A DNA stretch of 64,000 nucleotides from a virus: the IMG/VR virus record IMGVR_UViG_3300020182_000023, positions 14,697-78,696 of that record; one strand, 5' to 3'. Shown here piece after piece: positions 22,084 to 42,179 of this stretch. A program made the translations under genes and the position numbers. Each line of letters opens with the position of its first letter. The first letter of the stretch is position 1. Below the pieces are notes generated by a model. The model saw nothing but the letters and a program-made list of their open reading frames with translations. It did not search any database and was not told the DNA's origin.

Positions 22084-22302
22084 ATGGAATTTTCACTATT
22101 TTTAAACAACGGAGAACAAATAAATATAAACACAGAAGATTATACAGACCCTACTAGAACGGTTATGGAATACCTTATATCAATGCTAGAATATTATGAA
22201 ACAGAATTATCCTTCTGTGATGAAGAAAATGAATTACTGTATCAGCAAGTGGAATATTGTAAACTACTTACTGATTTGTTGAAGCCAGAGATAAAGAATT
22301 AA
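22084..22302 (+). CDS. Hypothetical acidic protein; stop codon overlaps attC-like site A
   Basis: 72 aa; its TAA is part of the TAAC. Confidence 0.55.
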   Translation: MEFSLFLNNGEQININTEDYTDPTRTVMEYLISMLEYYETELSFCDEENELLYQQVEYCKLLTDLLKPEIKN

Positions 22303-22348
22303 CACCAAGCTAAGAAGCGTTTTAATGCTTTCTTAGCGGCTGTTATGC
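22297..22348 (+). repeat. attC-like hairpin A (short type)
   Basis: TAAC-accaa-gctaagaagcgtt..aatgctttcttagc-ggct-GTTATGC. Confidence 0.65.
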
Positions 22349-22418
22349 AACGTTTTAATGTTGCAATTTTTAACCCTTATTAACATTAACCAATAGATAA
22401 TATTAATACATTTGAATT

Positions 22419-22850
22419 ATGATACAAATAGATAATATAGAAATAGACCCCACTGCATTAGTAGTGTTAGGAGGGTTTGCATTAGGGATGATTATAGCCC
22501 CTTTTGATTCCGCATTAATAAAAAGAGAATACAGGCTAGAATGGCTGTATCACACAGCTAAGTTTATGCTTATGTTCTTGTTAGGTGGTGCGTTATTACA
22601 CCACGTTCTACCTAAAGATGGATACTTCGTTCCAAGACTTATAGCTTGCTCATTATCATACAGCATTTCCTTTGACTTGTTTTTAAACTTTTTAAGAGGC
22701 AAGGAGATATTTTACATAGGACAAACTGCTTTTCTTGATAAGATGGCTAGAAAGTACCTTAAAACGGGTTTAAACTATATTTTCGTAAGGTTATTAGCTG
22801 TGTTTTTGATTGGAGTAGGAATAGTAATACATATTTTATTAAATAATTAA
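22419..22850 (+). CDS. Multi-pass membrane protein
   Basis: 143 aa with about 4 hydrophobic segments; FD..LN.LRGK..FYIG.TA.LDK motif. Confidence 0.6.
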   Translation: MIQIDNIEIDPTALVVLGGFALGMIIAPFDSALIKREYRLEWLYHTAKFMLMFLLGGALLHHVLPKDGYFVPRLIACSLSYSISFDLFLNFLRGKEIFYIGQTAFLDKMARKYLKTGLNYIFVRLLAVFLIGVGIVIHILLNN

Positions 22851-22853
22851 GAT

Positions 22854-23039
22854 ATGAATACAACTAAAATAACATATGAGGGTTACGGTAAGAAAATTTC
22901 CGTTGAATTAGACCACGAAGATGTATCTATACAAGAAGTATTAGACGCTGTTGTTTCAATGCTTTACGGAAGTGGATTTCATAAGCAGACAGTAGATAAC
23001 GGAATAATAGAATTAGCAGAAGAATTAAACGATAAATAA
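22854..23039 (+). CDS. Hypothetical protein
   Basis: 61 aa ORF. Confidence 0.5.
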   Translation: MNTTKITYEGYGKKISVELDHEDVSIQEVLDAVVSMLYGSGFHKQTVDNGIIELAEELNDK

Positions 23040-23048
23040 TTAAATAGA

Positions 23049-23249
23049 ATGGATAAGAGATACATTATAGAAGATTTAGGCTTAAAGAAAGCTAAGGATT
23101 ACAAGGGAGAGGTTTATTTTTACCCTGACGAAGAAGATTTTGTTGGGTTCTTTATAGAATCAGAAGATAAAACTCACTTTGTGTTTATACCGTCAGAGCC
23201 AATAGACAGCTTATCAAGTAAAACGGCTTTTGAAAGAATATTTAAGTAG
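23049..23249 (+). CDS. Hypothetical protein
   Basis: 66 aa ORF. Confidence 0.5.
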   Translation: MDKRYIIEDLGLKKAKDYKGEVYFYPDEEDFVGFFIESEDKTHFVFIPSEPIDSLSSKTAFERIFK

Positions 23250-23367
23250 ATATGAAAGATATGGTTTTATTGGTACTGTTAGCTGTATGTATAGTTGAAT
23301 ACAGAGAAAGACCTAGAATAGACTTCTGAGGGAATGTTTATTTGTGGTACGGTAGATATAATCGTAA

Positions 23368-24018
23368 ATGTATAAATATATTATAATGGAATATAAGATA
23401 GAAAAACAAGCTAAAGGCACTCGAATACTTTTCGGGGATGAGGTAAGAGATAGATACACGCTATTAAATAAAATGATAGCTACCGTTGAGTCTTACGGGT
23501 TTCAAGGAATACAACTGCCTAGCATAGAGCCGTCTGAAATATACATAGACAAAGCAGGGAGAGAAGTGCTTAATCAAATGTGGGTGTTTCCAGATAAAAA
23601 AGGAAGGAATGTATGCTTACGCCCAGAGGCAACGGCTACCGTTCAGCTAATCGCTAATCATTTCTGGCAAGCTAAAAAAGAAATAAGAGTTTGGTATTTT
23701 GAGAAATGCTGGAGATACGAAAAACCGCAAAGGGGCAGATACAGAGAATTTTGGCAGTTCGGTTGCGAAGTAATAAACCCATCTACTGATTTAATAAAAG
23801 AAGAATTAATAGACATATCTAAAGAACTTTGTGAACTTCAAACAAAGGATATAACGATAGATTATTCCGTAACAAGGGGATTGGGCTATTATACAGATAA
23901 AGGCTTTGAATTACGCTGTAAGCAACTAGGAGCGCAAGAACAGATATGCGGAGGTGGTTCTTATGATAGAGGAATTGGGTTTGCCATTGGGTTTGATAGA
24001 TTAATGCTTTGTAAATAA
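23368..24018 (+). CDS. Minimal histidyl-tRNA-synthetase-like catalytic domain (likely start 23386)
   Basis: KGTR, LRPEATA, motif 2 WRYEKPQRGRYREFWQFGCE, His loop RGLGYYT, GAQ.QICGGG.YD, motif 3 GIGFAIGFDRL; no insertion or anticodon-binding domain. Confidence 0.85.
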   Translation: MYKYIIMEYKIEKQAKGTRILFGDEVRDRYTLLNKMIATVESYGFQGIQLPSIEPSEIYIDKAGREVLNQMWVFPDKKGRNVCLRPEATATVQLIANHFWQAKKEIRVWYFEKCWRYEKPQRGRYREFWQFGCEVINPSTDLIKEELIDISKELCELQTKDITIDYSVTRGLGYYTDKGFELRCKQLGAQEQICGGGSYDRGIGFAIGFDRLMLCK

Positions 24019-24024
24019 ATAATT

Positions 24025-24255
24025 ATGAAAACAAAATTGATTAGAAACAGTACGCTCCAAGACTTAATGGATGCTGCGGAGTATTCTTCTTACTCAGAAA
24101 CACTAGAAGGTGTTAAACGGGCTAAAATAGGCTTAGATATATACGAGAAAGTAAAGGGTGGCTGGAAGCAAATCAGCGATTCGGGTATTATACCTAAGAA
24201 GTGTAACGTTATATCTCTTGATGCTAATGGCGCAAGCAGAATGAAGCGGAGGTAA
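24025..24255 (+). CDS. Hypothetical protein; stop overlaps attC-like site B
   Basis: 76 aa; TAA lies within TAAC. Confidence 0.5.
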   Translation: MKTKLIRNSTLQDLMDAAEYSSYSETLEGVKRAKIGLDIYEKVKGGWKQISDSGIIPKKCNVISLDANGASRMKRR

Positions 24256-24344
24256 CGGTTTGTGTATGAGTAGTGTGGCTTTGCTCTTATTTTCAACTTA
24301 CAGATAAACTTATTTAGCCACATTACTTATACACTTTTTTATAG
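24250..24344 (+). repeat. attC-like hairpin B (long type, degenerate 3' core)
   Basis: TAAC-ggttt-gtgtatgagtagtgtggct...agccacattacttatacac-tt-TTTATAGGTA (GTT expected). Confidence 0.55.
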
Positions 24345-24364
24345 GTATGTAAAATTTACGGAAT

Positions 24365-24511
24365 ATGAATAAAGAAAATAATTATTGGAAAGGAATAATG
24401 GTTGGATTTGCAGTAAGCACAATTGTTTGGTGTACTTTATGGGCATTTGTTATTGGAAAAATAGATAAGGTTCACAAACAAGAACTTGATTATATAATAG
24501 AAAAACACTAA
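24365..24511 (+). CDS. 48-aa membrane protein, cassette between sites B and C
   Basis: MNKENNYWKGIMVGFAVSTIVWCTLWAFVIGKIDKVHKQELDYIIEKH; flanks ttataggtatgtaaaatttac and gtaaattttattacctataa are near-complementary. Confidence 0.55.
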   Translation: MNKENNYWKGIMVGFAVSTIVWCTLWAFVIGKIDKVHKQELDYIIEKH

Positions 24512-24537
24512 ACAAAGTAGGTAGTAAATTTTATTAC

Positions 24538-24590
24538 CTATAACACCCGTCTAAGAAACGCTTTAATGTTTCTTTTGGCGGCTGTTAGAT
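24538..24590 (+). repeat. attC-like hairpin C (short type)
   Basis: ctaTAAC-acc-cgtctaagaaacg..tgtttcttttggcg-gct-GTTAGAT. Confidence 0.6.
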
Positions 24591-24654
24591 AAAGTTTAAC
24601 AACCATTTTACCCGACAGGGGAAATTGGTTAAGGAACATTAATAGATTTGAATT

Positions 24655-25029
24655 ATGAAACTACACAAAGACATATTATACTCCGTAGGAGATGAAATTG
24701 AGATAGATAACATTAAATACACCATAGAACTCGCAGGATGGGGTAAAATACGACTACATAAGAAATGCTGTGGTGATATGTCCGCTGCCAAAGAAGTAGA
24801 TGACGTAACAGCTATACGGGGCTTAGATATAATAATAGCACTTAATGAAGAAGGTGCTACTGAAGAGGTAGAGGAAATTAAAAATAACTTAGAATGTCAT
24901 TTTAATGAAATTGAGTGTAAATTTAAATCTGAAGAATCTAACCTTAATGACAAAATCCGCATATTAGAAGCGCAGAATAAAGATTTAAAGAATGAACTAG
25001 AGGATGATAAGTCTTGGTGGATATGGTAG
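24655..25029 (+). CDS. Hypothetical coiled-coil protein
   Basis: 124 aa after a TAGATTTG box. Confidence 0.55.
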   Translation: MKLHKDILYSVGDEIEIDNIKYTIELAGWGKIRLHKKCCGDMSAAKEVDDVTAIRGLDIIIALNEEGATEEVEEIKNNLECHFNEIECKFKSEESNLNDKIRILEAQNKDLKNELEDDKSWWIW

Positions 25030-25030
25030 C

Positions 25031-25060
25031 GATACGATAAGATACGATAAGATACGATAA
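25031..25060. repeat. Tandem repeat (GATACGATAA)x3
   Basis: Three exact 10-bp copies plus a degenerate fourth, between convergent genes. Confidence 0.85.
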
Positions 25061-25109
25061 TAATACGAAAAAGAGTTTAAGAAATGAAAACAACAGAAAG
25101 CTCGGTTAA

Positions 25110-25556
25110 CTACTGGGCTTTTTTGTTTCGCCCCCTTAAGGCTCTTTGCACCGTACTCAAGCTAACATCCAACTCATTCGCCAACTCCTGCTTAGAATAT
25201 TCTGGAAATAATTTATTTAACTCCAAAATCTTATTAACCATAGCCTTCCTTAAACTCTTCTTAATTAACCTAGCTTTCCTATTCTTAGATGTCCTTAGCC
25301 TAATAGCACGGCATTCTCGCTGCTTCAACTCCTTCAACCACATAGCTAACCAAAAATGTAAATAAGCAGAAGGCTTCCTATAATCATCAAACACCCATAT
25401 ACTATGAACCTCCCAACTGCCACCCAACTTGTGATACCACCTGTAATTAGAGTCCCTATCCCTTACAATTTTATGATTCTCTATCCTACATAAAGAAGCT
25501 AAATCATCATCAGACCAACTCGTACTTAAATTAACATCTTCCATATTCAAAAACAA
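25110..25556 (-). CDS. Protein with C-terminal HTH
   Basis: SKQELANELDVSLSTVQRALR. Confidence 0.55.
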   Translation of the reverse strand: MFLNMEDVNLSTSWSDDDLASLCRIENHKIVRDRDSNYRWYHKLGGSWEVHSIWVFDDYRKPSAYLHFWLAMWLKELKQRECRAIRLRTSKNRKARLIKKSLRKAMVNKILELNKLFPEYSKQELANELDVSLSTVQRALRGRNKKAQ

Positions 25557-25662
25557 ATATACCTAAACCATAAGGCTATAAAAAACAAAATAACACTCCT
25601 TAACATCTATCAATAAGATAATTAATTACTTTAGCTGTATGAAAAATAAAAAGTAAATAATT

Positions 25663-26010
25663 ATGAACTCAGTAGAAGAATACGAAAAAGAAGAACGGGA
25701 AATAAAAAAACTAATAGATGAGCTTAAAACAAGAAAGCCTACTATAAAAGAGATAAAAAAAGTATTGGACTTTAAAATACTACATAAGGACTCTAAGCAA
25801 AAATGGGTAATAAACGAATACTTCCCGTTAGAACACCACGAAAAACATTCAACATCATACCTAGTGCTTAAACCTTACAATAAGGGGTGGTTTTATAGAA
25901 ATGAATCATCGCACGACTACGGTATGCAAATAAACCCAGAGGTGTTTGAGGTGAAAATGACAGAACAAGAGGTAGTAGATAAGTATGTTATTAGTGATTA
26001 TGGATTGTAG
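25663..26010 (+). CDS. Hypothetical protein
   Basis: 115 aa ORF. Confidence 0.55.
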   Translation: MNSVEEYEKEEREIKKLIDELKTRKPTIKEIKKVLDFKILHKDSKQKWVINEYFPLEHHEKHSTSYLVLKPYNKGWFYRNESSHDYGMQINPEVFEVKMTEQEVVDKYVISDYGL

Positions 26011-26161
26011 TTTAATCCCCCGCAATACACAAAGGAAATAATATGAAACACATAGGATATATACCAAAAGAAACAGAAAAGAAACTACATAGAGAAGTAT
26101 GCAGTGAACTTACAGAACAAGACTACAACGGAAAAGATACTTACCACTTATACATAGAACA

Positions 26162-26506
26162 ATGGAATATAACTCAGACTTTAAATACGACCTAAAAGTA
26201 GGGCAAATAAAAGAAAAAGAACTAGCACATATACTCCAAAATGAAAAAATAGAAGTAAAAACAGACCTGCAAGCTCACAAAACAGGAAATATATTTATAG
26301 AATACCACTCAAGAGGTAAACCATCAGGACTAGCAACATCAGAAGCTAAATACTACTGCATAGCTATACAAGAAATACTAATAATACTACCAGCCAAAAA
26401 ACTTAAAAAACTATGCAGAAAATACCTAAACACCAACAGAGATAAAAAAGGCGGAGATAGCAACTCCTCAAAAGGAATACTCCTGCCAGTAAAAGATTTA
26501 TTTTAA
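26162..26506 (+). CDS. Small PD-(D/E)XK-like phage protein
   Basis: F..DL..GQ..E, IEVKTD, TGNIFIEY.SRGKPSG..TS.A motifs. Confidence 0.55.
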   Translation: MEYNSDFKYDLKVGQIKEKELAHILQNEKIEVKTDLQAHKTGNIFIEYHSRGKPSGLATSEAKYYCIAIQEILIILPAKKLKKLCRKYLNTNRDKKGGDSNSSKGILLPVKDLF

Positions 26507-26557
26507 AAATTTTGTATGTATGTAGAAGTGGGGGATAATATAATATTCAACCCCGCC
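26507..26557. repeat. Imperfect direct repeat, copy 1 (flanks HNH gene)
   Basis: aaattttgtatgtatgtagaagtgggggataatataatattcaaccccgcc resembles 27721-27772. Confidence 0.5.
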
Positions 26558-26581
26558 ACCTCCAACAAACCAAACCCGAAT

Positions 26582-27679
26582 CTATTCTGCTTTATTACCG
26601 TGACCACCAATACCATTCTCTTTCTTGTATTTTGAAATCTTAATCGCTATGTTAGATTGGGATGTTCCTAACTTCTCTGCTATTTTCCATTGTGGCATTG
26701 TCTTATTCATTTCGTACAATTCTTTATAGTCGTATTTTCTGTTTCTTTTATCTAAGCCGTTAAGCCTAGCGCCAAATCTTTTTATAGCTGTTTCAACAGC
26801 CCCGTCACCACAATTATAATACTCAGTTAGCATTTTTAGCGTGTACCTCTTTTCTACTAAGCTTAAAAACTCATCTTTATCTGCTATACCATAGGGCTTA
26901 ACATAAATATCTTCACTTCTAAGCTCACCATACTTAATAATAATCCTTTTAACAGCACCAACACTAATCTGATACTTATCAGAAATAAACTCTATGCTAT
27001 TACCAGATTCGTAGGACTTAGAAAAAACCTTACCCCTACAATCTTTGTAGTTGATATTTCGAGTTATCCGTACAATAGTAGGAGGAGATACATTAAACAT
27101 ATCAGCTATTTCCGTATTACTAACCAACTCTTCAGAATAAAGCCTTTTAATTTCCCGCTGCTCATCATAGGAGAAATTAGTAAACTTATCCTTAATAACC
27201 CTATTACTCCTACCATCAAATACGCCTAGTTCAACCAACAGTGATTTAATAACAGCGCTTGATACATTATACTGATTAGCTATATAAGTTATAGGGTAAG
27301 ACTCATACATATCAACTATATTCTTCTTGTCAGAATCACTAAACGAATACTTAGTCCCAGATAAGTAACCAGCATCTTTCTGCCTTTTTCTATTTTCCTC
27401 TGGAGTAACCCACTCTAAGTTACTAGAGGCATTATTAAGCCTATTAAAGTCCTTATGGTCAACTTCGTGTCTATCGCTAGGAGGTAGCCCATTAAAAGCT
27501 AGACAAACAAGTCTATGTACATACTGAGAGTGCCTGCCCTTTTCATTATGCCTAACTCCAACGGATAAGTACTTACCACCCTTTAATTGAGGCTTTAGTA
27601 CATTACCTCTCTTCTTATTATAAACATTTCCTAATTCATCTACTTGGTACTTATCGTACATTGGTATATTCTTTTTCAT
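26582..27679 (-). CDS. HNH homing endonuclease with multiple C-terminal HTH repeats
   Basis: YQVDELGNV, YVHRLVCLAF, EVDHKDFNRLNNASSNLEWVT..EN, then repeated IA..YNVS HTHs. Confidence 0.8.
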   Translation of the reverse strand: MKKNIPMYDKYQVDELGNVYNKKRGNVLKPQLKGGKYLSVGVRHNEKGRHSQYVHRLVCLAFNGLPPSDRHEVDHKDFNRLNNASSNLEWVTPEENRKRQKDAGYLSGTKYSFSDSDKKNIVDMYESYPITYIANQYNVSSAVIKSLLVELGVFDGRSNRVIKDKFTNFSYDEQREIKRLYSEELVSNTEIADMFNVSPPTIVRITRNINYKDCRGKVFSKSYESGNSIEFISDKYQISVGAVKRIIIKYGELRSEDIYVKPYGIADKDEFLSLVEKRYTLKMLTEYYNCGDGAVETAIKRFGARLNGLDKRNRKYDYKELYEMNKTMPQWKIAEKLGTSQSNIAIKISKYKKENGIGGHGNKAE

Positions 27680-27720
27680 ATATTATATTTTTGTAGGTAC
27701 AAATATAAGAAAAATAATTT

Positions 27721-27772
27721 AAATTTTGTGTGTATAGAGGGGTGTGGTATAATAAATAGTTCAATGCCCGCC
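27721..27772. repeat. Imperfect direct repeat, copy 2
   Basis: aaattttgtgtgtatagaggggtgtggtataataaatagttcaatgcccgcc. Confidence 0.5.
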
Positions 27773-27943
27773 TCAAACCCAATAAAAAACGGCTCAATAT
27801 TACCCGAGTGGGTCAATATTTCAACTTCAAAAACATAACCACCACCACTACATTACACCACGTTACACCATAGCATTTATATCTACATTCCTTGCCTATG
27901 CTATGCGCTTGATGCTATTGTATTTAACATTTATTAACAATGT

Positions 27944-28264
27944 ATGTATCTTTTTTATATTACATTTGTCGCAGTATCCGATGTTGGATGCTACAATTTA
28001 ATACTATATATTATGAATATTGAAATAGAATACTTGAGAACGGACAAATCGCCTTGTTACGGTGGATTCAATGTACAGAACGTTTACGAAGTGAACACCG
28101 TGACAAATGGCTTTAGTAACCGATATACCGTATTTTGCAGGATTGCAGGCTTAAACGGTGGTCAAATATGGAATGAGCCAGTAAGCTACGAAGCGCACGG
28201 CAATAACGAAGAGACGCTTATCGAAAGTGCTGTATTTGATATTTTCGAAGATAACATAGGGTAA
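27944..28264 (+). CDS. Early hypothetical protein (true start probably about 28013)
   Basis: ORF downstream of a TACATTTG box at 27961. Confidence 0.5.
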   Translation: MYLFYITFVAVSDVGCYNLILYIMNIEIEYLRTDKSPCYGGFNVQNVYEVNTVTNGFSNRYTVFCRIAGLNGGQIWNEPVSYEAHGNNEETLIESAVFDIFEDNIG

Positions 28265-28287
28265 ACAAACACAAAGCCCCGTTCATA

Positions 28288-28524
28288 TTGTTCGGGGCTA
28301 ATTTAATACTAAACAAGATGACAAATTCAAAAGGACAACCGTTAACCTTTGGTTTCAGGTCAAACACAAAGGTATTGAAGTACAAAAGCAAAAGAGCTAC
28401 AAACAAGCTGGTAGACTCTTACAATGAAGCTAAAATAGACGCATACAAGGCGCATTGGGATAGCTTTAATACTGACCTATATAAGGAATTAATTGCAATT
28501 AAATTAAATAGTTTAAACAGATAG
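28288..28524 (+). CDS. Early hypothetical protein
   Basis: ORF, probable ATG at about 28318. Confidence 0.5.
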   Translation: MFGANLILNKMTNSKGQPLTFGFRSNTKVLKYKSKRATNKLVDSYNEAKIDAYKAHWDSFNTDLYKELIAIKLNSLNR

Positions 28525-28685
28525 GATTATGAAAACTTATTATTTCAAAGTAACGAATAACGGATTGACAAAATTAGTAGGGATGTGCGCTAGCTCTAAA
28601 AAGAAAGCAATGAAGTATGTATTAAGACATCCTTCGTTCAACAATCCAATAGTAAAACATATGTAAACCCCTAAACACTAAAAAC

Positions 28686-28720
28686 AAAAGCCTTGCTATT
28701 AATTTAGCAGGGCTTTTTTT
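28686..28720 (+). terminator. Intrinsic terminator
   Basis: aaagccttgcta-ttaatt-tagcagggc-ttttttt. Confidence 0.75.
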
Positions 28721-29287
28721 ATGCGCTAAACTTTCTGTTCATACATTCTATTTAGTAAACAAATTAGCCGTAAAAATATCTCTTATTCAATATCTAATAT
28801 TTGACACGATGACTTTTTTAAGGGGCTAAAATAGTCATGCATAATTTTAAAATAACCGTCAAACCTATGCTGTCATTGGTCTGTAGAAGGTTTTGGGTTT
28901 TGACTTTTGTTACGACCTTATATAGGTAGTAAAAGTTTTTTTTGTTTGTTGATGTGTTTAGGTGTAAATAGGGTATAATTCCACACACACAAACTACTCA
29001 CATTTAAACCAAATACAATATTTAGCCAAGTCAAGAATATAATTATTTTGTCCTATGTTTAGTACATTATGTTAAGTAGAGTAACTCTATTGAGTATATT
29101 ATTATTCATTAGATTGGTTATTTTTATTGCTATTTATAGCGTATTCTATTAGTTTAATTCTAGTTTAGAATATAAACCAAGTGAATAACAGCAAGTTAGA
29201 TGTTTATATGTTAACGAATGTTAAAAAGTATTGCGTATTGAAATATTGGTTGTAGTATTGCTTTCGTAAACAAATAAACAAAACAAG

Positions 29288-29467
29288 ATGAAAAAGTATA
29301 AACAAAATTTAAGAGTAGAAAACAAAAAAGTGTTTAGTTACAATACGCACGTTGCAACAATTGAGAGTGATAATTTAATGCAGTTGGGCTATTGGTCTAT
29401 GACTACTCAGAAGCACATTAACTATGTGGCAAACGAATTTAATTTAAATTTAGTTAAGCCTAGTTAA
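29288..29467 (+). CDS. Small early protein (missed by ORF track)
   Basis: MKKYKQNLRVENKKVFSYNTHVATI...GYWSMTTQKHINYVA; SY.T.VA / S.TT.KHI pattern common in phage early genes. Confidence 0.55.
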   Translation: MKKYKQNLRVENKKVFSYNTHVATIESDNLMQLGYWSMTTQKHINYVANEFNLNLVKPS

Positions 29468-29740: not shown

Positions 29741-29806
29741 CAATTTTTAACACTAACATACAAAACAAATAAACTACATTTGAATAATTAAACAAAATAA
29801 AAGATT

Positions 29807-30469: not shown

Positions 30470-30537
30470 TATAATTTAACTTTTCAATACATAAACAATT
30501 ATATACATTTGAATTATTAATTTTAAAACAAAACAAA

Positions 30538-31860: not shown

Positions 31861-31881
31861 TTATAACGTTGAGTGTAGTGC
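31861..31881 (+). repeat. Collapsed attC-like remnant D
   Basis: taTAACGTTgagtgtagtgc: stop-overlapping TAAC fused to a GTT..gtgtagtgc near-complementary to gcattacac..aac at 32186-32199. Confidence 0.35.
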
Positions 31882-31909
31882 GGATTATTAACAAATAAAT
31901 TTAATTGAA

Positions 31910-32186
31910 ATGGCTGAAATTAATTATAGTAAAGAGAATTGTTGGAGAATAAAATACATTCCCAATAGATTGCACTAAAGAAAAAAATAGACATGGTGAT
32001 TGGCGAATTGTAGTACCCAAAATGGCAATGAGTTATGACGTTTTTATTGATATAGAAACATCTATTACACACATGGAAAGTTATGGTATTAGATACAATT
32101 ACATAGAGGGTGTCGCTAGTATGAATGTAACGGATAAAGGACTAAAAGAATTACAAGAAATGACTGACGTTATACGCATAGTTTAG
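31910..32186 (+). pseudogene. Disrupted cassette ORF
   Basis: The ATG frame stops after 22 codons; a long open frame NTFPIDCTKEKNRHGDWR...IRIV* lacks an in-frame start at its 5' end. Confidence 0.4.
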
Positions 32187-32192
32187 CATTAC

Positions 32193-32288
32193 ACAAAACG
32201 GGTAGGTATATGATTAGTGTGCGATTGCACTAACCTTTGAATTAAAACAAATATTAACTAAGCACATTAACTATATACATTGTTAGGG
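32193..32288 (+). repeat. attC-like hairpin E (long type)
   Basis: acaaAAC-gggtag-gtatatgattagtgtgc...gcacattaactatatac-att-GTTAGGG. Confidence 0.6.
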
Positions 32289-32308
32289 TGCGTTTAAATT
32301 AAATTATT

Positions 32309-32512
32309 ATGACTTACGAAGACTTTTTATTCTCACAATTATTTATGAACCACGTTGAGAATAACGAAACACAATATCAAGAACTTGAATATGACTTGAT
32401 ATTCCCCGAAGTATTAAAGCACCAAAATCTATTCTTAAAATCTAATTACAATTTAGACGTTTGTAGCGAATACGATTGCATAGTAAACTACCTTCTTAAT
32501 GAAGTGAAGTAA
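32309..32512 (+). CDS. Cassette-borne hypothetical protein
   Basis: 67 aa; cassette starts GTTAGGGT and ends ACCCTAAC. Confidence 0.6.
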   Translation: MTYEDFLFSQLFMNHVENNETQYQELEYDLIFPEVLKHQNLFLKSNYNLDVCSEYDCIVNYLLNEVK

Positions 32513-32516
32513 TGAA

Positions 32517-32610
32517 CCCTAACGTTTAGTATAAGATTAGTGCGCTAAACTATAAACTTTGAATTAAGCACTAACATAACCAAGCGCATTAATTTTATAC
32601 ATTGTTATGC
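32517..32610 (+). repeat. attC-like hairpin F (long type)
   Basis: CCCTAAC-gttta-gtataagattagtgcgct...agcgcattaattttatac-att-GTTATGC. Confidence 0.75.
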
Positions 32611-32628
32611 GCTTTTAATTAAATTATT

Positions 32629-32814
32629 ATGGACTACAAATTAATTGACAACATTGAAGTAGATGGAATAGACACTAAAGACTATCCAGATTTTTGTGAC
32701 GCATTTATAGCAAGTGCGAAATATAATGGAAAACCAATGACTGACGAGCAATTAGATGAATTAAATGAGGATGGCGGATTTGTTTATAAATGTGTGGAAA
32801 ATCATTTGTTCTAA
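32629..32814 (+). CDS. Cassette-borne small acidic protein (DGID..DYPDFCDAFI family)
   Basis: 61 aa; cassette starts GTTATGCGC and ends GCGCATAAC. Confidence 0.65.
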   Translation: MDYKLIDNIEVDGIDTKDYPDFCDAFIASAKYNGKPMTDEQLDELNEDGGFVYKCVENHLF

Positions 32815-32818
32815 TTGC

Positions 32819-32911
32819 GCATAACACCAAGCTAAGAAACGTAAAGCGCAGCACAATGTTTAATCTTAGCACAATACTATATTGCTTTATGGTGTATAGG
32901 TTGTGTTAGCA
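32819..32911 (+). repeat. attC-like hairpin G (hybrid)
   Basis: GCATAAC-accaagctaagaaacgtaaagcg (same left arm as site J)...GTTAGCA. Confidence 0.6.
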
Positions 32912-32988
32912 AATCGTTTAATTATGAATTTACAAGCAACAGATATATTATTAGCAGTATTTAAAGCAATAGCAATTACATTTTACAT

Positions 32989-33216
32989 TTGCTCAATGGT
33001 TTTATTTTTAATATACTTAGCATTATGAATGATTTAAACAAGGCAGATATTATTTCGCACGGCGAGATATTGAAGAAGGAACTAGAACAACAAGGAGCAA
33101 AAGAATTAACAGCTCACAGCGATTTAGGAGTGGCTTTAACGGCTAAACAAATGGATTTGGTGTGTGAGTATAAAGAAGTAATTAAAACGCTTAAACAATT
33201 AAAAAAAAAGATATGA
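32989..33216 (+). CDS. Hypothetical protein (probable ATG about 33025)
   Basis: ORF. Confidence 0.5.
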   Translation: MLNGFIFNILSIMNDLNKADIISHGEILKKELEQQGAKELTAHSDLGVALTAKQMDLVCEYKEVIKTLKQLKKKI

Positions 33217-33353
33217 TATACAAATTTATATATTGGTTAATGCTTGCTTCATTAGGAGCATTAGCTTGGGGAGTTATTATAGGGTTTATTTATACCGTCC
33301 TTTGTGGGATGGCGGAATTTATAGGATTAATTTAAATACCTATATTTGCAACC

Positions 33354-33440
33354 TAAGAGCGTGAGACCTCAACTTAAAACATTTAGATAATTCCTTGCCG
33401 AGAACCCTTCGGTCTCACGCCTTCTTGGTGGGGGATTATC
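33354..33440 (+). ncRNA. Putative kissing-loop leader RNA, copy 2
   Basis: gag-CGTGAGAC-ctc; gataattcctt.gccgagaa..GTCTCACG..ttcttggt.gggggattatc; directly after TATATTTG (33341-33348). Confidence 0.55.
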
Positions 33441-33458
33441 GACTTTATTATAATTATT

Positions 33459-33944
33459 ATGGCTGATAGAACACACGGAATGTCTAGCACTAGGGAATAC
33501 AAGGTATGGAAGACTATAAAAGATAGGTGCTATGGAATTAATAGCGATTGCTATGACAGATACGGAGGCAGAGGTATAGTTATGCAGTATAATTGGATTA
33601 ACAACTACATAGAATACTATAATTATGCAAGTAAGATAGATGGATTCTCAGACCCTAATAAATCAATAGATAGAATAGATTCTAATGGAAACTACGAAGA
33701 GGGTAATATTAAATTCTCTACCCCTAGTCAACAATGCGCTAATAGAAGGCTATTCAAGAACTCTAAATCAGGCTACACTGGCGTAGTTAAAAAAGGAAAG
33801 AAATACGAGGCTACCATAAGCGTTAACGGTAAAAGGATATATATAGGAAGGCATAAAGACCCTAAAGTATTGGCTATAATGAGAGACGAATATATAATCA
33901 AAAACAATCTTACCGAGTACCCACTTCAAATTTTAAATAGATGA
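33459..33944 (+). CDS. HNH-AP2 homing endonuclease
   Basis: THGMS.TREY..W..IK.RC, YGGRGI, SIDRIDSNGNYE.GN, SGYTGV...Y.ATI...GKRIYIG (AP2). Confidence 0.8.
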   Translation: MADRTHGMSSTREYKVWKTIKDRCYGINSDCYDRYGGRGIVMQYNWINNYIEYYNYASKIDGFSDPNKSIDRIDSNGNYEEGNIKFSTPSQQCANRRLFKNSKSGYTGVVKKGKKYEATISVNGKRIYIGRHKDPKVLAIMRDEYIIKNNLTEYPLQILNR

Positions 33945-35899
33945 ATAAAGTATCAGTATTCAAGCACTATAAAGACACTCACAGCCCTATACACGCAGAT
34001 GTATTTGGTATCTTAGAAAAGATAAAGACTGGAGGTAACGAGAAAGAACTAATCGAACACATAAGAACCTTAGAAGGTGATGAATATAAGAAAGAGAAAC
34101 TAAAACTGCCGTTAATTTGCTTTGGTGGTACGTTTGGGAATAGAAGTAAAGACGGAATTATTAACGGTTCGGGTATGATTCCATTAGATTTTGATGAAGG
34201 CACTGAGGATGAACTTAATGAACTTAGAAAAACATTAGAGTCTCAGCCATACACAATAGCAGTATTCTCTTCGCCACGTTTAAGAGGTAGATTTAAAGCT
34301 CTTATACGCATCCCTGTTACATCTTCGGATGAAGAGTTCAAAAAGTATTTTGCCGCCTTAAAAAAGGAGTATAAGACCATAGACCCTAGTGGTAAAGATA
34401 TTTCCAGAGCATCGTTCTTCACCTACGACCCTGATATTTACATTAACAAAGATGCTACGGTGTGGGATATTAAATACGAAACACCTAAGCAAAAGAAAAC
34501 AACAGAAAGATATACAGTTAGAGATTGGGATTCTGTTACCAATGCACTAAAGAAAATCGAGACAGCAGAAGATGGGTATAAGCATTTAGCTAGAACTAAG
34601 ATTGCATATTTAATGGGAGGTTGGATTAGCGCAAAGCAAATTAACTACCAAGAGGCAATGAAATTATTAGAGGATGCCGTTGCTAAGAATACAACAGACC
34701 TTGATGCTGCAATGAAAACCGTTAAGGATTGTGTACAAGCAGGAATGAACGCCCCACTTAATATGTCAGAGCAAAGAGAGGTATTAAAACTATCCGTTGC
34801 AGCCCCTAGAAGGTATAAGCCTATGTCTGAGGTATGGGATGATGTACAGAATTTCTATGAAACGGGCTATAAGCGTGGTTGGGATGTTGGGTTTAATTGT
34901 GCTAAAGAATATCTTAGCATCTTAGAGGGTAGTACTAGTTATGTTTATGCTGCGCCTGCTGCTGGTAAAACTCAGGTTTGGATGGAGATACTTATGAATA
35001 TAACCATTGACAGAGTTAGGAGTGGGGAAGATTTTTACAATCAAATATTCACGCCCGAAACGGGAGATGTAGCACAAGTGTATGGGGAGTTAATTAGTAT
35101 TCACGCTAAGAAATCTTTTGTTGGTAAATATAAGATGTCGGAAGATGAAATGAAAGCATCTGCTGATTTTGTATCTAAGTACTTTTTGATATTAGACTAC
35201 GAAGGAGATACGGCTGATATGAAAGGAATATTAACACAAGTGGAGGCTGCTGAAAGAGAATTTGGAATACATATTAATACGGTTACTATTGACCCGTTAA
35301 ACTACCTATCTTTTGATGAGGGTAGATATAGTAGAAGGGATTTATCCATTGCTAAGGATTTAGATTTATTCCTTGCTGATGCCCGAAAAAATAAAAGGCA
35401 TAACTGTATAATAACCCATGCACGCGACCAGCAAGCAATTAAAAATAATGATGGTCAATGGTATTATCCGTTAGTCAGCCCTAGAATGATTTTAGATGGG
35501 CAACAGTTTTTTAGAAAAGGTATGTTAATGATTAGTATATACAGACCATTAGATATAAAGAATGAGCCTTTAGCTGATGATAACGGTTATCCCGCAGAGC
35601 AGAACGAAACCCAAGTATGGATACAGAAAGCTAAACCTAAAGGCTGCGCTAAGGTAGGTATGTTTAAATTATTCTACGACTTTAAGGCTAATAGATATTA
35701 CGAGAAAGACGAACAAGGTAGAGAGTTCTTTGCTTGGGGAGTACCTAGACAGCAAGAAGATAAATTTCCGCCAATACAAAAGGAGATAAAGCAAATACCC
35801 CCCGTTAAGAAAGAAGAGGACTCATTAAAAGCTAACACAAGTTTTGATGAGCCAACCCCAATAATAGATGATATTGAAATAATGGAATCCCCATTTTAA
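33941..35899 (+). CDS. Primase-helicase fusion (BT4734/VirE-N-like primase + SF4 helicase)
   Basis: K.KLP.ICFGGTF, PLDFD, F.SP...GRFKAL, D.SGKDISRA.F..YDP; Walker A AAPAAGKT, VTIDP, ITH. Confidence 0.8.
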   Translation: MNKVSVFKHYKDTHSPIHADVFGILEKIKTGGNEKELIEHIRTLEGDEYKKEKLKLPLICFGGTFGNRSKDGIINGSGMIPLDFDEGTEDELNELRKTLESQPYTIAVFSSPRLRGRFKALIRIPVTSSDEEFKKYFAALKKEYKTIDPSGKDISRASFFTYDPDIYINKDATVWDIKYETPKQKKTTERYTVRDWDSVTNALKKIETAEDGYKHLARTKIAYLMGGWISAKQINYQEAMKLLEDAVAKNTTDLDAAMKTVKDCVQAGMNAPLNMSEQREVLKLSVAAPRRYKPMSEVWDDVQNFYETGYKRGWDVGFNCAKEYLSILEGSTSYVYAAPAAGKTQVWMEILMNITIDRVRSGEDFYNQIFTPETGDVAQVYGELISIHAKKSFVGKYKMSEDEMKASADFVSKYFLILDYEGDTADMKGILTQVEAAEREFGIHINTVTIDPLNYLSFDEGRYSRRDLSIAKDLDLFLADARKNKRHNCIITHARDQQAIKNNDGQWYYPLVSPRMILDGQQFFRKGMLMISIYRPLDIKNEPLADDNGYPAEQNETQVWIQKAKPKGCAKVGMFKLFYDFKANRYYEKDEQGREFFAWGVPRQQEDKFPPIQKEIKQIPPVKKEEDSLKANTSFDEPTPIIDDIEIMESPF

Positions 35900-35910
35900 A
35901 ACAAATAATT

Positions 35911-36150
35911 ATGAAAAAATTAACAAAAATACATTACGAAAAGAACATCCTACCAACGTATTCAGTCGAATGGAAGGAAGTTCTTAAGGATGACGAAACA
36001 AACAAAAAGTTTATAGAAATAGCTAATGAATCAGTAGTAAATGAACTTAAGATTAAAATAAAATTACTGAAATTAATGCCAACTCCAGATGAGTATAAAA
36101 AGGAAGCATTGAGCTACTTGGAATCAATGTTAAATGAGTATACTATTTAG
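35911..36150 (+). CDS. Hypothetical protein
   Basis: 79 aa ORF. Confidence 0.5.
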   Translation: MKKLTKIHYEKNILPTYSVEWKEVLKDDETNKKFIEIANESVVNELKIKIKLLKLMPTPDEYKKEALSYLESMLNEYTI

Positions 36151-36222
36151 ATTACATTAATAAATGTTAAAAAGCTTGTCAATCAGAAAGTTAAATAATA
36201 TATTTGAGTAAAATTTAGAGAT

Positions 36223-36447
36223 ATGAGCTTAACTAAAAGAAACATAGAGCAATTTAATTCTGGCTACGATGGAATGGATGATGAATACTTCTATCGCAAA
36301 GCACAAGAAGCAGAATACAGAGAAATGACAAATGAAATACCGTACTTACAGCGACTTAGGATTGAAGATGGAAAGCTTAAACAAGCTATCGAAGCATCAG
36401 CTAGAGCAGCTACTGGAAGTAATGACAAGGCATCACGGTTACATTAA
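36223..36447 (+). CDS. Hypothetical protein
   Basis: 74 aa after a TATATTTG box. Confidence 0.5.
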   Translation: MSLTKRNIEQFNSGYDGMDDEYFYRKAQEAEYREMTNEIPYLQRLRIEDGKLKQAIEASARAATGSNDKASRLH

Positions 36448-36638
36448 TAGTGAGTTTACAGAGAAAAGAAAGAAAGTAATTGAACATTTAATAAAAGAAA
36501 GATGAACTACGATGATTACAAGCTATCTAATCCTTACGATGACGAGGATGTATTTGGAAATACAATTGATAGTGAAGAAGAGGAAAACGAAGCTGCTGAT
36601 AGAGCAGATGATTATAATGATGAATTAAAACTAGAAGA

Positions 36639-36837
36639 ATGAAAAATATATACAAAGCATTAGCTGATTTTCAGCAAGAAGTCAAGTATAACATACCAGT
36701 TTTTATATAATACTACTTACATTTGTTGTATGGAAAAATGGAAAAATATAAAAAATTTTGAAGGTATTTATAAGGTTTCAAATAAAGGTAATGTAAAAAG
36801 CCTAAAAAGAAAGAGAATTATTTTTATTAAACATTAA
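36639..36837 (+). pseudogene. ERF 5' remnant plus NUMOD4 remnant
   Basis: MKNIYKALADFQQEVK.. then TACATTTG and MEKWKNIKNFEGIYKVSNKGNVKSL..*. Confidence 0.6.
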
Positions 36838-36845
36838 ACAAAAAA

Positions 36846-37448
36846 ATGAAGAATTTAGCTAAAGCGGTACTAGCCGTAATGAAAGACGTTAAGGGCGTTG
36901 AAAAGAGTATGACTGTTGGTAGCGGAAACTACTCTTATAAAGGGGTATCGGACTACGAGGTAAAGAAGATTTACAATAAGTCTATGGCGGCTAATGGGCT
37001 GTGTATTTTGCCTATTGGAATAGTAGACGATGTAGATATTAATAGATATGAAGACCAATACGGTAAGCAGAAAATGAATGTGTTTACTAGGGTTACTTCT
37101 ACATATCTTTTACTACACGAAAGCGGGGAATCTCAAGAGTTGGTAGGTTACGGTCACGGAGTAGATACGGGAGATAAAGCAGCGGGAAAGGCTACTACAT
37201 ACGCAATGAAGTACGCTTTATTATACACATTTATGACTCCTACGGGCGCAATAGATGATTCCGATACAACCCATTCAAATGACCACGAAGCACCCGTTGT
37301 TGCACCTAAGAAAGAAGCGTTAACAGAATCTCACCCACGCTATGAAGGGGCAAAGAAAGCGTTAAGCGAAGGTAAAACTACATTAGAAGTAATTAAACAA
37401 ACATTCACCGTAAGTAAAGCGGTAGAAAAACTATTAACAAGTAAATAA
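36846..37448 (+). CDS. ERF-family ssDNA annealing protein
   Basis: LLHESGES, G.D.GDKAAGKATTYAMKYALL..F.....DD.D. Confidence 0.85.
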   Translation: MKNLAKAVLAVMKDVKGVEKSMTVGSGNYSYKGVSDYEVKKIYNKSMAANGLCILPIGIVDDVDINRYEDQYGKQKMNVFTRVTSTYLLLHESGESQELVGYGHGVDTGDKAAGKATTYAMKYALLYTFMTPTGAIDDSDTTHSNDHEAPVVAPKKEALTESHPRYEGAKKALSEGKTTLEVIKQTFTVSKAVEKLLTSK

Positions 37449-37449
37449 A

Positions 37450-37983
37450 ATGGAAGAATGGAGGGATGTTTCGGGGTATGATGGCAGGTATCAAGTTAGT
37501 AATTTAGGTAGAGTAAAGAGTCTTGATATGATTATAAATAATAGGCATAATAGTACATCTAAAAAGAAAGGAAGGATATTAAAACAGCAACCTAACAAGA
37601 AGGGTTATCTTCAGGTAAGATTATGCTACAAAAAAACACATAAAAGCTGTAGGGTGCATAGATTAATTACTGAAGCTTTTATCCCTAATCCAGAGAATAA
37701 GCCTCAAGTAAACCATATAAATGGAGTTAAGGATGATAATAGGGTTGAAAATTTAGAATGGTGTACAAATAAGGAAAATCAAATACACGCAACAAAAAAT
37801 GGGCTATTTAATCCTAATTTTGGAGAAGAGCATCATATGTCTAAGTTGACAAATAATCAAGCCAAGCACATTAGGCTACTTAAATCAAGAGGTTTTACGC
37901 TAAATAAATTATCTAAAAAATACAAACTGTCAATGACAGCGATAAGCAACATAGTAAATAATAAAACTTATATAAATATCTAA
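37450..37983 (+). CDS. NUMOD4-HNH homing endonuclease
   Basis: EEWRDVSGYDGRYQVSNLGRVKS, VHRL..EAFIPNPENKPQVNHINGVKDDNRVENLEW. Confidence 0.9.
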   Translation: MEEWRDVSGYDGRYQVSNLGRVKSLDMIINNRHNSTSKKKGRILKQQPNKKGYLQVRLCYKKTHKSCRVHRLITEAFIPNPENKPQVNHINGVKDDNRVENLEWCTNKENQIHATKNGLFNPNFGEEHHMSKLTNNQAKHIRLLKSRGFTLNKLSKKYKLSMTAISNIVNNKTYINI

Positions 37984-38002
37984 CAAGTAAATAATAAATA
38001 AG

Positions 38003-38374
38003 ATGAGTGAATTAGTAATGAAGGGTACAATAGAGAAAATCGGAAGCCTTGAACAAATATCCGATAAGTTTAAGAAGGTTGATTGGGTGCTTGATACGGG
38101 TGGAGATTATCCGCAGAAAATAGCGTTCCAAACCATTCAAAAAAACGCCGACAGCTTCGTTAAGCATAATAAAGTTGGTGACGTAGTTGAAGTTAAGTTC
38201 AACGTAAAAGGCAGAAAATGGGTCAACCCACAAGGAGAGGCTAAGTATTTCAATACACTTGAGGCTTGGTTTATCTCAAAGGCTGATGGTCAAAGTGGAG
38301 CAAGTACGCCTAACAAGGAGTTCGAGAAGCAAACGGCAGCGCCAATAGCTGAGGATAATTCACTCCCATTTTAA
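38003..38374 (+). CDS. ssDNA-binding protein (DUF3127 type)
   Basis: YPQKIAF, VGDVVEVKFNVKGRKW, KYFNTLEAW, acidic LPF tail. Confidence 0.8.
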   Translation: MSELVMKGTIEKIGSLEQISDKFKKVDWVLDTGGDYPQKIAFQTIQKNADSFVKHNKVGDVVEVKFNVKGRKWVNPQGEAKYFNTLEAWFISKADGQSGASTPNKEFEKQTAAPIAEDNSLPF

Positions 38375-38467
38375 TCTATGATTAACAATTACACAAGCAA
38401 AGCAGAGGAGGTTCTAATTGAGCCTTCTTCTGCATTGTCTTTAGCTGTTTAAAATATATTTAAAATT

Positions 38468-38647
38468 ATGAAAGAAGAAATAGAAAGTAAACTATCCCCG
38501 CAACAGATGGTAGTAATAGACTCTTTAAGAGAGCAATTAGGAGATGACACAGTTAATATACTCCTAGAGTTTGGTTATGAAATAGGTAAGGCAGATGGAG
38601 TAGAGATGTTCTTTCAGCAGACTAAAGATATTTTAAAGGAAGCATAA
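38468..38647 (+). CDS. Hypothetical 59-aa protein; stop overlaps attC-like site H
   Basis: MKEEIESKLSPQQMVVID...KEA*, TAA within GCATAAC. Confidence 0.5.
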   Translation: MKEEIESKLSPQQMVVIDSLREQLGDDTVNILLEFGYEIGKADGVEMFFQQTKDILKEA

Positions 38648-38748
38648 CGTTGAGTATAAACGGTCGTTACGGATGTGTAGATATGTTTCACAACGTTTAG
38701 AGTAAAAACTGCATAGCGTAGCGGAGTTGTTTTTAAACTTTGTTATGC
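38642..38748 (+). repeat. Composite attC-like element H/I
   Basis: GCATAACgttgagt..., second TCACAACgtttagagtaaaaac...gtttttaaactt-t-GTTATGC. Confidence 0.55.
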
Positions 38749-38767
38749 GTTGCGTAAAATTAAGATT

Positions 38768-38995
38768 ATGACACCAAAAGAAAAAGCAAAAGAATTACAG
38801 AATAAACACCTTTACTGCTATTTAAACCCTGCTTACCCATTACACGATAGATTTGATGTTATTCAAGCGTCTGAGCAAGCATTGGTAACAGTAAATGAAA
38901 TACTTGAAAGTTTTTTAATAGATATTCCAGACCACCAATTTAAGTTTTGGGAAGAAGTTAAGAGCGAATTAAACACCATAATATTAGGAGAATGA
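38768..38995 (+). CDS. MTPKEKAKEL-type small protein (cassette-borne)
   Basis: MTPKEKAKEL...AL.TVNEIL...FWEEVKSEL, starting 20 nt after GTTATGC. Confidence 0.6.
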   Translation: MTPKEKAKELQNKHLYCYLNPAYPLHDRFDVIQASEQALVTVNEILESFLIDIPDHQFKFWEEVKSELNTIILGE

Positions 38996-39239
38996 AAACA
39001 CCACTACAGGAATTAATGGAGTATATGGAGCAAAACCAATATTTCATAGGAATGATTTATTGGCTAAGTATAATGAACTTATTGAAAAAGAGAAACAAGA
39101 GTTTATAAGTTGTTATATTAGAGCTATGACAAAAGAATATCTAAACCCTATGCCGAGAAAATATTATTATGAAGTTGCCGAAGATTATTATTATACTTTT
39201 ATTAACCCATTAGGCAAAAATGAGAAATCCTATAAATAG
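38992..39239 (+). pseudogene. Frameshifted small phage gene
   Basis: MKTPLQELMEY...FIG then -1 frame NDLLAKYNELIEKEKQEF...AEDYY; one base missing near 39050. Confidence 0.45.
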
Positions 39240-39274
39240 CCACTAAACGGTAATTAGTGGCAAAATATAGAACT

Positions 39275-39403
39275 ATGAAAAAGAAACTAATTGAGATACC
39301 CGAAGAAGTATTTAATCAAATAGAATTATCCGCAAAAAAGAATGTAAGGAGTGTAAATAAAGAGATAGTGTTTCTTCTTACGAGTGCGGTGGGTAAAAAA
39401 TAA
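39275..39403 (+). CDS. Arc-like ribbon-helix-helix protein
   Basis: MKKKLIEIPEEVFNQIELSAKKNVRSVNKEIVFLL. Confidence 0.65.
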   Translation: MKKKLIEIPEEVFNQIELSAKKNVRSVNKEIVFLLTSAVGKK

Positions 39404-39407
39404 TTGC

Positions 39408-39467
39408 ATATAACACCAAGCTAAGAAACGTAAAGCGAAGCGTATGTTTCCTTAGCGACTGTTAACG
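39408..39467 (+). repeat. attC-like hairpin J (short type)
   Basis: ataTAAC-accaa-gctaagaaacgta..tatgtttccttagc-gact-GTTAACG. Confidence 0.65.
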
Positions 39468-42173: not shown

Positions 42174-42179
42174 ATTTTT

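Follow-up and report, generated by a model that had tools for sequence, protein, structure and literature searches.

The window analysed here is a 64,000-nucleotide stretch of viral DNA, bases 14697-78696 of a 78.7-kb IMG/VR virus record (IMGVR_UViG_3300020182_000023, denoted as G000; estimated completeness 74%), and its early arm carries a series of hairpin sites set between small genes. By protein similarity, the nearest cultured relatives are Flavobacteriia phages, the top one being Maribacter phage Panino, with 25% identity over the primase-helicase. The early/replication arm occupies the + strand from 20.8 to 45 kb, and the remainder of the window is the structural arm on the - strand. 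The early arm encodes a helix-turn-helix (HTH) protein, a histidyl-tRNA synthetase (HisRS)-like fragment, a primase-helicase, an ERF protein, a DUF3127 protein, and a DnaA-C HTH protein, together with two exonucleases and at least four HNH endonucleases. The first-pass annotation had placed nine co-oriented TAAC...GTTA hairpins in this arm and compared them with the attC sites of integrons. Every one of the nine was found at its position (Table 1), on the + strand and in the intergenic gaps of the + strand early arm. The overlap of stop codon and core that had been noted is also present: the TAA is the stop of the upstream open reading frame (ORF) at 22300, 24253, 31864, and 38645.

Table 1. 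Hairpin sites, cassette bodies, and associated genes in the window (positions in nucleotides; R1 and R2, covariance models of the short and long site types)
Feature	Position	Strand	Description
S1, short	22300-22345	+	TAAC-ACCAA-stem-CGTTTTAATG-stem-GGCT-GTTA; R1 61.3 bits on +, 25.4 on -
ORF-less inverted pair right after S1	22346-22374	+	(GTTA)TGCAAC-GTTTTAAT-GTTGCA-ATTTTTAAC, read off the sequence
S2, long	24253-24341	+	Degenerate 3' core TTTA; R2 88.6 bits; heads one-gene unit with ORF 24365-24511
Cassette body	24339-24543	+	TTATAGGTA (24339-24347), ORF 24365-24511 (48 aa), TACCTATAA (24535-24543); ends form a 9-nt complementary pair
S3, short	24541-24587	+	R1 48.6 bits; in G003 directly after the stop of the ORF 24025-24255 homologue
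S4c, collapsed long-type 5' half	31864-31893	+	TAAC GTTGA GTGTAGTGCGG..., without 3' arm; no fold
S5, long	32196-32285	+	5' core AAAC, not TAAC; R2 88.4 bits; heads ORF 32309-32512
Cassette body	32282-32523	+	GTTAGGGT (32282-32289), ORF 32309-32512 (67 aa, ORF67), ACCCTAAC (32516-32523)
S6, long	32520-32607	+	R2 99 bits on +, 29 on -; heads ORF 32629-32814
Cassette body	32604-32825	+	GTTATGCGC (32604-32612), ORF 32629-32814 (61 aa, ORF61), GCGCATAAC (32817-32825)
S7, chimeric	32822-32912	+	Short-type 5' half to loop CGTAAAGCG, then 3' half of another site type
S8, double	38645-38745	+	5' remnant, then CAAC GTTTA...TTTGTTA; heads three-ORF unit 38768-39403
S9, short	39411-39464	+	GCGAAGC loop; R1 40.7 bits; ORF-less hairpin 39465-39486 after it; present in G001
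S10, weak extra candidate	38383-38450	+	TAAC...hairpin...GTTT, non-canonical; identical in all close relatives
HisRS-like protein	23368-24018	+	216 aa, catalytic core only, PF13393 E 1.9e-27; within the S1-led multi-gene unit
HNH/NUMOD4-type endonuclease genes, at least four	26582-27679 (-), 33459-33944, 37450-37983, 42066-42965		

The division into a short and a long subfamily was recovered, and compensatory base changes back both folds. The short type starts with TAAC and five further bases; a stem of about 10 bp capped by the loop CGTTTTAATG follows, and the returning arm leads through three or four bases to GTTA. Across 11 non-identical short sites from the window and other viral contigs, TAAC, the loop, and GTTA are invariant, the stem sequences vary, and six of the 16 pairs show double compensatory changes. 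The long type has the same base as the short type, followed by a 17-bp helix that mostly opens with GTATA and a loop of about 40 nt. In the eight long sites, the helix is 98.5% paired, with double changes in seven pairs, and none of 500 shuffles reached the observed covariation. Scanned with the covariance model of the short type (R1), the window gave + strand scores of 61, 49, and 41 bits, - strand scores of 25 and 21 bits, and no similar score anywhere else in its 64 kb; the model of the long type (R2) assigned 88-99 bits to the long sites. The sites have 17-27 identical bases in common with one another, and they are not a product of chance. Both models strongly favour the + (coding) strand, the strand whose fold is conserved. 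The long helix contains two invariant G.T pairs, with G always on the 5' arm, and the equivalents on the - strand would be C.A mismatches. Bulges vary among the sites, and the constant asymmetry consists of these two G.T pairs and the asymmetric loop. With AAC...GTT outer cores, a central spacer, an inner stem, (nearly) invariant TAAC and GTTA, and covariation, the R''...R' layout proposed for the sites is well founded. The loops of S7 (32845-32851), S8 (38715-38721), and S9 (39434-39440) read GCGCAGC, GCGTAGC, and GCGAAGC, respectively. Sequences of the form d(GCGNAGC) make very stable DNA mini-hairpins, and loops of this type thus hint at folding as DNA.

The hairpins had alternatively been envisaged as terminators only. 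The ordinary terminators of this phage, present in both arms, consist of a GC-rich stem followed by a T run, from which the sites differ in lacking T runs; most sites also lack the TAnnTTTG promoter box. An Rfam scan of the window returned no family at gathering score. The additional candidate S10 was not detected by R1 or R2, and no indel evidence was found at S10 among the relatives. Two generic hairpin searches, one for TAAC...GTTA scored by DNA folding energy and one counting box-plus-stem combinations relative to 32 other tetranucleotides, were dropped because they gave no discrimination in this AT-rich genome. Searching bacterial genomes with an exact pattern of the short-type 5' half produced 33 matches, all at chance level except for one at an Aequorivita contig end.

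Three close relatives (G001, G002, and G003), obtained by searching viral contigs for the motif of the short site type, are 92-99% identical where aligned and reveal how the sites relate to gene content. In G003, the end of the ORF 24025-24255 homologue (...gcggaggTAAC) is joined straight to the body of S3; exactly S2, ORF 24365-24511, and the following ...TACCTATAA are missing, and the BLAST pieces overlap by TAAC (4 nt). This S2-led unit is present in the window and in G002. In G001, ...aaggaagtaTAAC is joined to the body of S9, with S8 and its three ORFs missing and the BLAST pieces overlapping by 6 nt. The segment between the TAAC cores at 31864 and 32520 is missing from G001 as well, a form that recurs in an independent metagenome. 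These three separate presence/absence differences fall on cores. Since S2 and S3, as well as S8 and S9, belong to different subfamilies and have only TAAC in common, homologous exchange cannot make these joints. Past ORF 32629-32814, ttctaattgcgNaTAAC is common to G001 and the window before the sequences diverge, which indicates that the joint tracks the core and not the stop codon, located 10 nt upstream. Every lost unit comprises a site and its downstream gene or genes, which places the crossover at the coding-strand 5' core (AA|C). The relatives thus differ by whole ORF-plus-site units bounded at the cores, and the outcome named beforehand as fatal to a cassette reading, relatives devoid of breakpoints at the cores, did not materialise.

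Further site variants accompany these differences. S1 heads a multi-gene unit that includes the HisRS-like gene and extends to the next core (24253-24256); this site is missing from G001, G002, and runs X5 and X6, or has been replaced there, and the left joint falls on the C of TAAC. A collapsed half-site similar to S4c follows the ORF61 homologue in G001, and a contig from run X5 carries the 3' half of S7 behind another 5' half. The last gene of the S8-led unit (39275-39403, +) encodes a 42-aa Arc-like ribbon-helix-helix protein (PF03869, E 1.6e-5) and is skipped or replaced in variants of runs X3 and X6.

Individual units are also found in otherwise unrelated phages. Relatives of ORF67 in contigs L134, L135, and L136 have an S5-type site upstream and ...ACCCTAAC downstream, while their upstream neighbours and downstream sites all differ. 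Likewise, ORF61 relatives in L143 and L144 have an S6-type site upstream, and G001 contains S6 and ORF61 in the collapsed form. In these five contigs, the cassette gene is the sole gene in common with G000. The units common to unrelated phages show 87-95% DNA identity with intact borders. Window positions 32521-32826 align with L143 positions 1392-1698 at 89.6% identity over 306 nt, with both ends exactly at AAC cores, those of S6 and S7, and the homology between the window and L135 (32206-32524) ends at the AAC core of S6 (32523/4). These alignments, together with the units lost in the relatives, overturn the assignment of each site to the ORF before it: the site travels with the downstream gene. 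Gene polarity is uniform throughout the phage arrays, and the phage genes are inverted relative to classical integron cassettes. ORF61 is specific to phages, with 106 viral relatives, most of which occur in other phages with no sites at all, and no match in 401 Flavobacteriaceae genomes.

The unit borders bear a second signature. Genes carry GTTA-X on their upstream side and rcX-TAAC on their downstream side, where X, paired with its complement rcX, differs from unit to unit. The pairs in the window are TTATAGGTA/TACCTATAA, GTTAGGGT/ACCCTAAC, and the GTTATCGC-type GTTATGCGC/GCGCATAAC. The X sequences are TGCGC, GGGT, GCATTA, GGTGTA, GGCGCA, GGGGC, and CCTG, the last five from elsewhere in the clade; 13 of 15 bases match in the GGGGC pair. 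When at least four matching bases beyond the core were required, GTTA-anchored inverted repeats bracketed 11 of 258 ORFs versus 0.49 expected from mismatched up/down pairs, and ten control anchor tetranucleotides gave 0-2. Because the complementarity spans the gene and not one hairpin, it is interpreted as the mark left by a crossover inside the outer arm of the folded site, as in integron arrays. Units without a gene may exist as well. The inverted pair following S1 could be an empty-cassette scar, contig L005 presents a cleaner ORF-less layout, GTTAGCAAAT...ATTTGCTAAC (GTTA-GCAAAT-loop-ATTTGC-TAAC), and the short hairpins that follow S1 and S9 may belong to this ORF-less kind as well.

The same site families occur in bacterial chromosomes. 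R1 matches 39 of 151 Flavobacteriaceae genomes, in clusters, and R2 matches 88 of the 151; R1 matched none of 302 control genomes (0/151 in a Streptococcus-type family and 0/151 in a Prevotella-type family). The sites are co-oriented in eight host loci. In L244-L247, where R2 recovers the sites well, most gaps between the genes of a co-directional array hold a site, and sites and genes are on opposite strands. The arrays of L244-L251 (e.g. L246:2819-15425) hold at least eight cassettes, and most of their gaps contain a site about 125 nt long. The host sites have the layout TAAC/CAAC-GGTnn-stem-CGTTTTAATG-stem-GTTA, as in the phage, and consecutive host sites obey the end-complementarity rule (GTTATACACA / TGTGTATAAC in L246). 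Relative to transcription, the sites are antisense in the hosts, which is the classical geometry, and sense in the phage, while the fold-conserving strand is the same in terms of the site. This opposite polarity implies that any one function common to both lies at the DNA level; an added RNA role of the sites in the phage may exist.

A tyrosine recombinase gene (PF00589) lies at one end of the array in all five host genomes checked. Three of these array recombinases (357-376 aa) score best with the XerA/integron-integrase model, at 216-227 bits, and reach 179-217 bits with the IntI model, below its 265-bit cut-off. Their matches to the IntI model fall into two stretches (spans 7 to 180 and 240 to 314), leaving model positions of about 180-240 unmatched, which indicates that the array recombinases lack the integron-specific insertion. 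The recombinase adjoining L244-L251 carries about 100 additional residues at its N-terminus, and the open frame that contains the array-end match in G062 is only 202 aa long. In the phages, no tyrosine recombinase was detected in 26 site-bearing contigs, two of which are at least 90% complete, in agreement with the reported lack of an integrase in view. A search for a serine recombinase in the phage was negative, as was that for a Y1 transposase (PF01797) in G000, G001, G002, G020, and G021. No integron integrase (TIGR02249) exceeded the 265-bit NCBIfam cut-off in the 401 Flavobacteriaceae genomes. The idea that an IntI-like recombinase might be encoded in the rest of the phage genome or in the hosts is thus borne out in one part only: none was found in the phage contigs, and an Xer/IntI-like candidate, scoring below the IntI cut-off, stands beside the host arrays. 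For the predicted host tyrosine recombinase, there is now a concrete candidate, adjacent to arrays of the same site families in Flavobacteriaceae chromosomes.

On these grounds, the hairpins are probably the recombination sites of an integron-like cassette system that is native to Flavobacteriaceae and that the phage carries without a recombinase of its own. The unit is composed of C, the folded site, GTTA-X, one or more promoterless small ORFs, and rcX-TAA. In a circularised unit, pairing of X with rcX lengthens the TAAC/GTTA stem to a complete outer arm, following the principle of the R box in integron attC sites. The chromosomal array of the infected cell would supply the Xer/IntI-like tyrosine recombinase, which would bind the folded single strand as a mimic of a two-arm core site, made up of the outer arm, a spacer of about 5-6 nt, and the inner stem. 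The recombinase is predicted to cut TAAC between A and C and to swap units between sites; cassettes would accordingly leave as circles, insert again, and pass from phage to phage in co-infected cells. The earlier comparison with clusters of attC sites lacking integrases (CALINs) is supported by the core joints and by the complementary unit ends, which form a circular-permutation signature. A broader proposal, towards which we lean only slightly, is that Flavobacteriaceae and their lytic phages share a folded-DNA cassette system under an insertion-less Xer/IntI-like recombinase, with the phages keeping a separate early-gene pool of inverted polarity that the enzyme of the infected cell would shuffle between phage genomes during infection.

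Several observations weigh against this interpretation. The sole basis for pairing the enzyme with the sites is their adjacency in genomes of the likely hosts. Viral contigs do contain homologues of the host recombinase, at 38-47% identity, but R1 finds no site within 5 kb of them. Neither a recombination event nor a circle or excision product was detected; the data are assembled Logan contigs, not raw reads, and the joints seen in them represent variants from relatives. In addition, G002 is without S9 and the entire intergenic region, with a TAA|TGG joint in which the stop codon overlaps the next ATG; S7 and the sites in L002 and L003 are chimeras that crossed over within the loops; and many further mosaic joints of the early arm lie at plain gene borders. 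The S9 loss in G002, the loop chimeras, and the gene-border joints show that general recombination also shapes the region. The ERF protein, the exonucleases, and at least four HNH endonucleases encoded by the phage could drive such exchange as well.

The chief rival to a site-specific cassette system builds on this general recombination. It holds that the hairpins are regulatory modules akin to promoter early stem-loops (PeSLs), serving as terminators, RNA processing sites, or 5' stabilisers, which are swapped through ERF annealing, exonucleases, and template switching at hairpins, with no site-specific enzyme. The ERF protein and two exonucleases provide the machinery; the sites lie between early genes on the transcribed strand, where G.T pairs would be G.U in RNA; the loop-crossed chimeras (S7, L002, and L003) look like homology or microhomology events; the early-arm mosaicism reaches well past the sites; and indels at intergenic stem-loops are already documented for PeSLs (PMC2839356, PMC4122927). 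However, the S2/S3 and S8/S9 joints link unrelated site types that share only TAAC, and the unit-specific inverted repeats around the genes have no role under this scheme. Moreover, the sites are without T runs and mostly without the TAnnTTTG box, while ordinary terminators coexist with them, and in the host arrays the sites are antisense to the genes and beside a recombinase. We therefore regard the modules of this rival as an unlikely explanation, with perhaps a small share of the probability.

Somewhat less probable still is that the sites are inactive relics, that is, cassettes or bare sites that entered once, by an integron-like or illegitimate event, and have since been inherited, with the indels reflecting ordinary deletion and module exchange. 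Decay is indeed visible in the collapsed S4c, the G-to-T change in the 3' core of S2, the AAAC core of S5, and the chimeric S7; none of the 26 phage contigs has a recombinase; and illegitimate capture was also raised by Qi et al. as a source of phage CALINs (PMC9892861). Against inherited relics stand the 87-95% identical units with intact borders in unrelated phages, the three core-located presence/absence differences among 92-99% identical relatives, the phage specificity of ORF61 (106 viral relatives, 0/401 host genomes), and the uniform gene polarity in the phage arrays. Single-strand transposons of the IS200/IS605 type (palindrome-associated transposable elements, PATEs), inserted 3' of a TAAC target by an HUH Y1 transposase, would account for the fixed tetranucleotide that always immediately precedes the unit start, the subterminal hairpin after the target, and the fixed strand polarity, but they are highly improbable given the lack of a Y1 transposase in the five genomes searched, a unit hairpin at one end only, host arrays that go with a tyrosine recombinase and not TnpA, and complementary unit ends that a core-site crossover fits better.

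The integron-like cassette system favoured here resembles integron attC sites and CALINs in its imperfect hairpins with outer AAC...GTT cores, a short spacer, and an inner stem, in which structure is kept and sequence is not. It also resembles them in the co-oriented arrays between small promoterless genes, in the complementary unit ends from which a circle would rebuild the outer arm, and, as in CALINs, in the lack of an integrase nearby in the phage. In contrast to integrons, the phage contigs contain no IntI, none was found above the cut-off in the 401 genomes of the host family, and the host-array enzyme is without the IntI-specific insertion. The phage site precedes its own gene, with the crossover at the coding-strand 5' AA|C, whereas the host arrays are classical. 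The loop CGTTTTAATG is conserved here, whereas attC loops are variable, and the asymmetry appears to come from two fixed G.T pairs, the bulges differing between sites. Consequently, the system acts like an integron cassette array but lacks two hallmarks of the classical integron, the IntI enzyme and the gene-then-site order.

Related elements have been published in part. Qi et al. (2023) described CALINs of two or three predicted attC sites in virulent phages, including a Polaribacter (Flavobacteriaceae) phage, and showed that IntI1 recombines five of six phage CALIN sites in E. coli (PMC9892861); unlike the present case, these published CALINs came without comparative evidence of cassette movement. 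Ross et al. (2019) described rAID-1 in gut Bacteroidales as arrays headed by an XerD-like recombinase with integron-like repeats (bioRxiv 10.1101/471110). By this description, the host loci are similar, with an XerD-like recombinase gene followed by co-directional low-GC small genes and repetitive intergenic sequences. Such a recombinase-headed array is found in host loci L244-L248, and the phage has arrays without the recombinase. Unlike the present system, rAID-1 was reported from Bacteroidales chromosomes, with immunity genes, and not from phages (bioRxiv 10.1101/471110), and the absence of R1 matches in 151 genomes of the Prevotella-type family indicates that the two site families differ. 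The claim of an undescribed system therefore needs to be divided: phage CALINs and rAID-1 are already on record (PMC9892861; bioRxiv 10.1101/471110), whereas no publication was found on this Flavobacteriaceae site family, its recombinase, or phage cassettes led by the site. PeSLs are likewise conserved intergenic stem-loops in plastic early regions of lytic phages, where they border indels and replacements of small orphan genes. They differ in being composite promoter-terminator motifs exchanged by homologous recombination of like copies (PMC2839356, PMC4122927), whereas here unlike sites are joined at a 4-nt core, the units have specific inverted ends, and the sites also stand beside a recombinase in bacterial chromosomes.

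A host Xer-type recombinase acts on a hairpin of single-stranded phage DNA, with one strand exchanged, in the attP site of CTXphi, a phage that integrates its whole genome at dif. In contrast, no dif-like arms were found in the sites described here. The outer arm TTGCGCATAA resembles the XerC arm of E. coli, and the inner arm is unlike a XerD arm. A dif-type pattern search in five host genomes performed no better than the control, and the Xer/dif idea was left as speculation.

If the proposed system is real, integron-type recombination on folded single strands would not be limited to IntI enzymes or to bacteria, and in a major marine phylum the part of an integron integrase would be played by an Xer-like enzyme that is missing an insertion supposed to be essential. 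Standard integron surveys, being keyed to IntI, would miss it. The puzzling gene-by-gene mosaicism seen in phage early regions would in part gain a defined, testable mechanism with predictable breakpoints, and under the broader proposal an integron-type mechanism would be a general engine of such mosaicism. The sites would also provide a sequence handle that links uncultured phages to Flavobacteriaceae hosts, given that R1 matched none of the 302 control genomes, and would help to catalogue mobile early genes, likely to act in takeover or counter-defence.

Several further features of the early arm were noted. BLAST alignments to G001 and G002 stop at 37449 and restart at 38279, so that the HNH endonuclease gene at 37450-37983 has no aligned counterpart in these relatives, consistent with a free-standing homing endonuclease. 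Ahead of the HNH-like/primase operon, a 123-nt structured leader (33336-33458, +) forms a long stem (gcgtgagacc...ggtctcacgc); G002 has an identical copy, and the sequence at that place in G001 is unlike it. A short tandem repeat of gatacgataa units lies between two ORFs at 25030-25083, and one metagenome variant is shorter by exactly 10 nt. Early promoters of the Bacteroidota TAnnTTTG type occur at 22404-22421, 24640-24657, 29780-29806, and 30510-30537, and the box is missing from the cassette genes that stand behind sites. The box lies only 4-7 nt 5' of the ATG (TACATTTGAATTATG), a spacing that suggests leaderless or near-leaderless early mRNAs.

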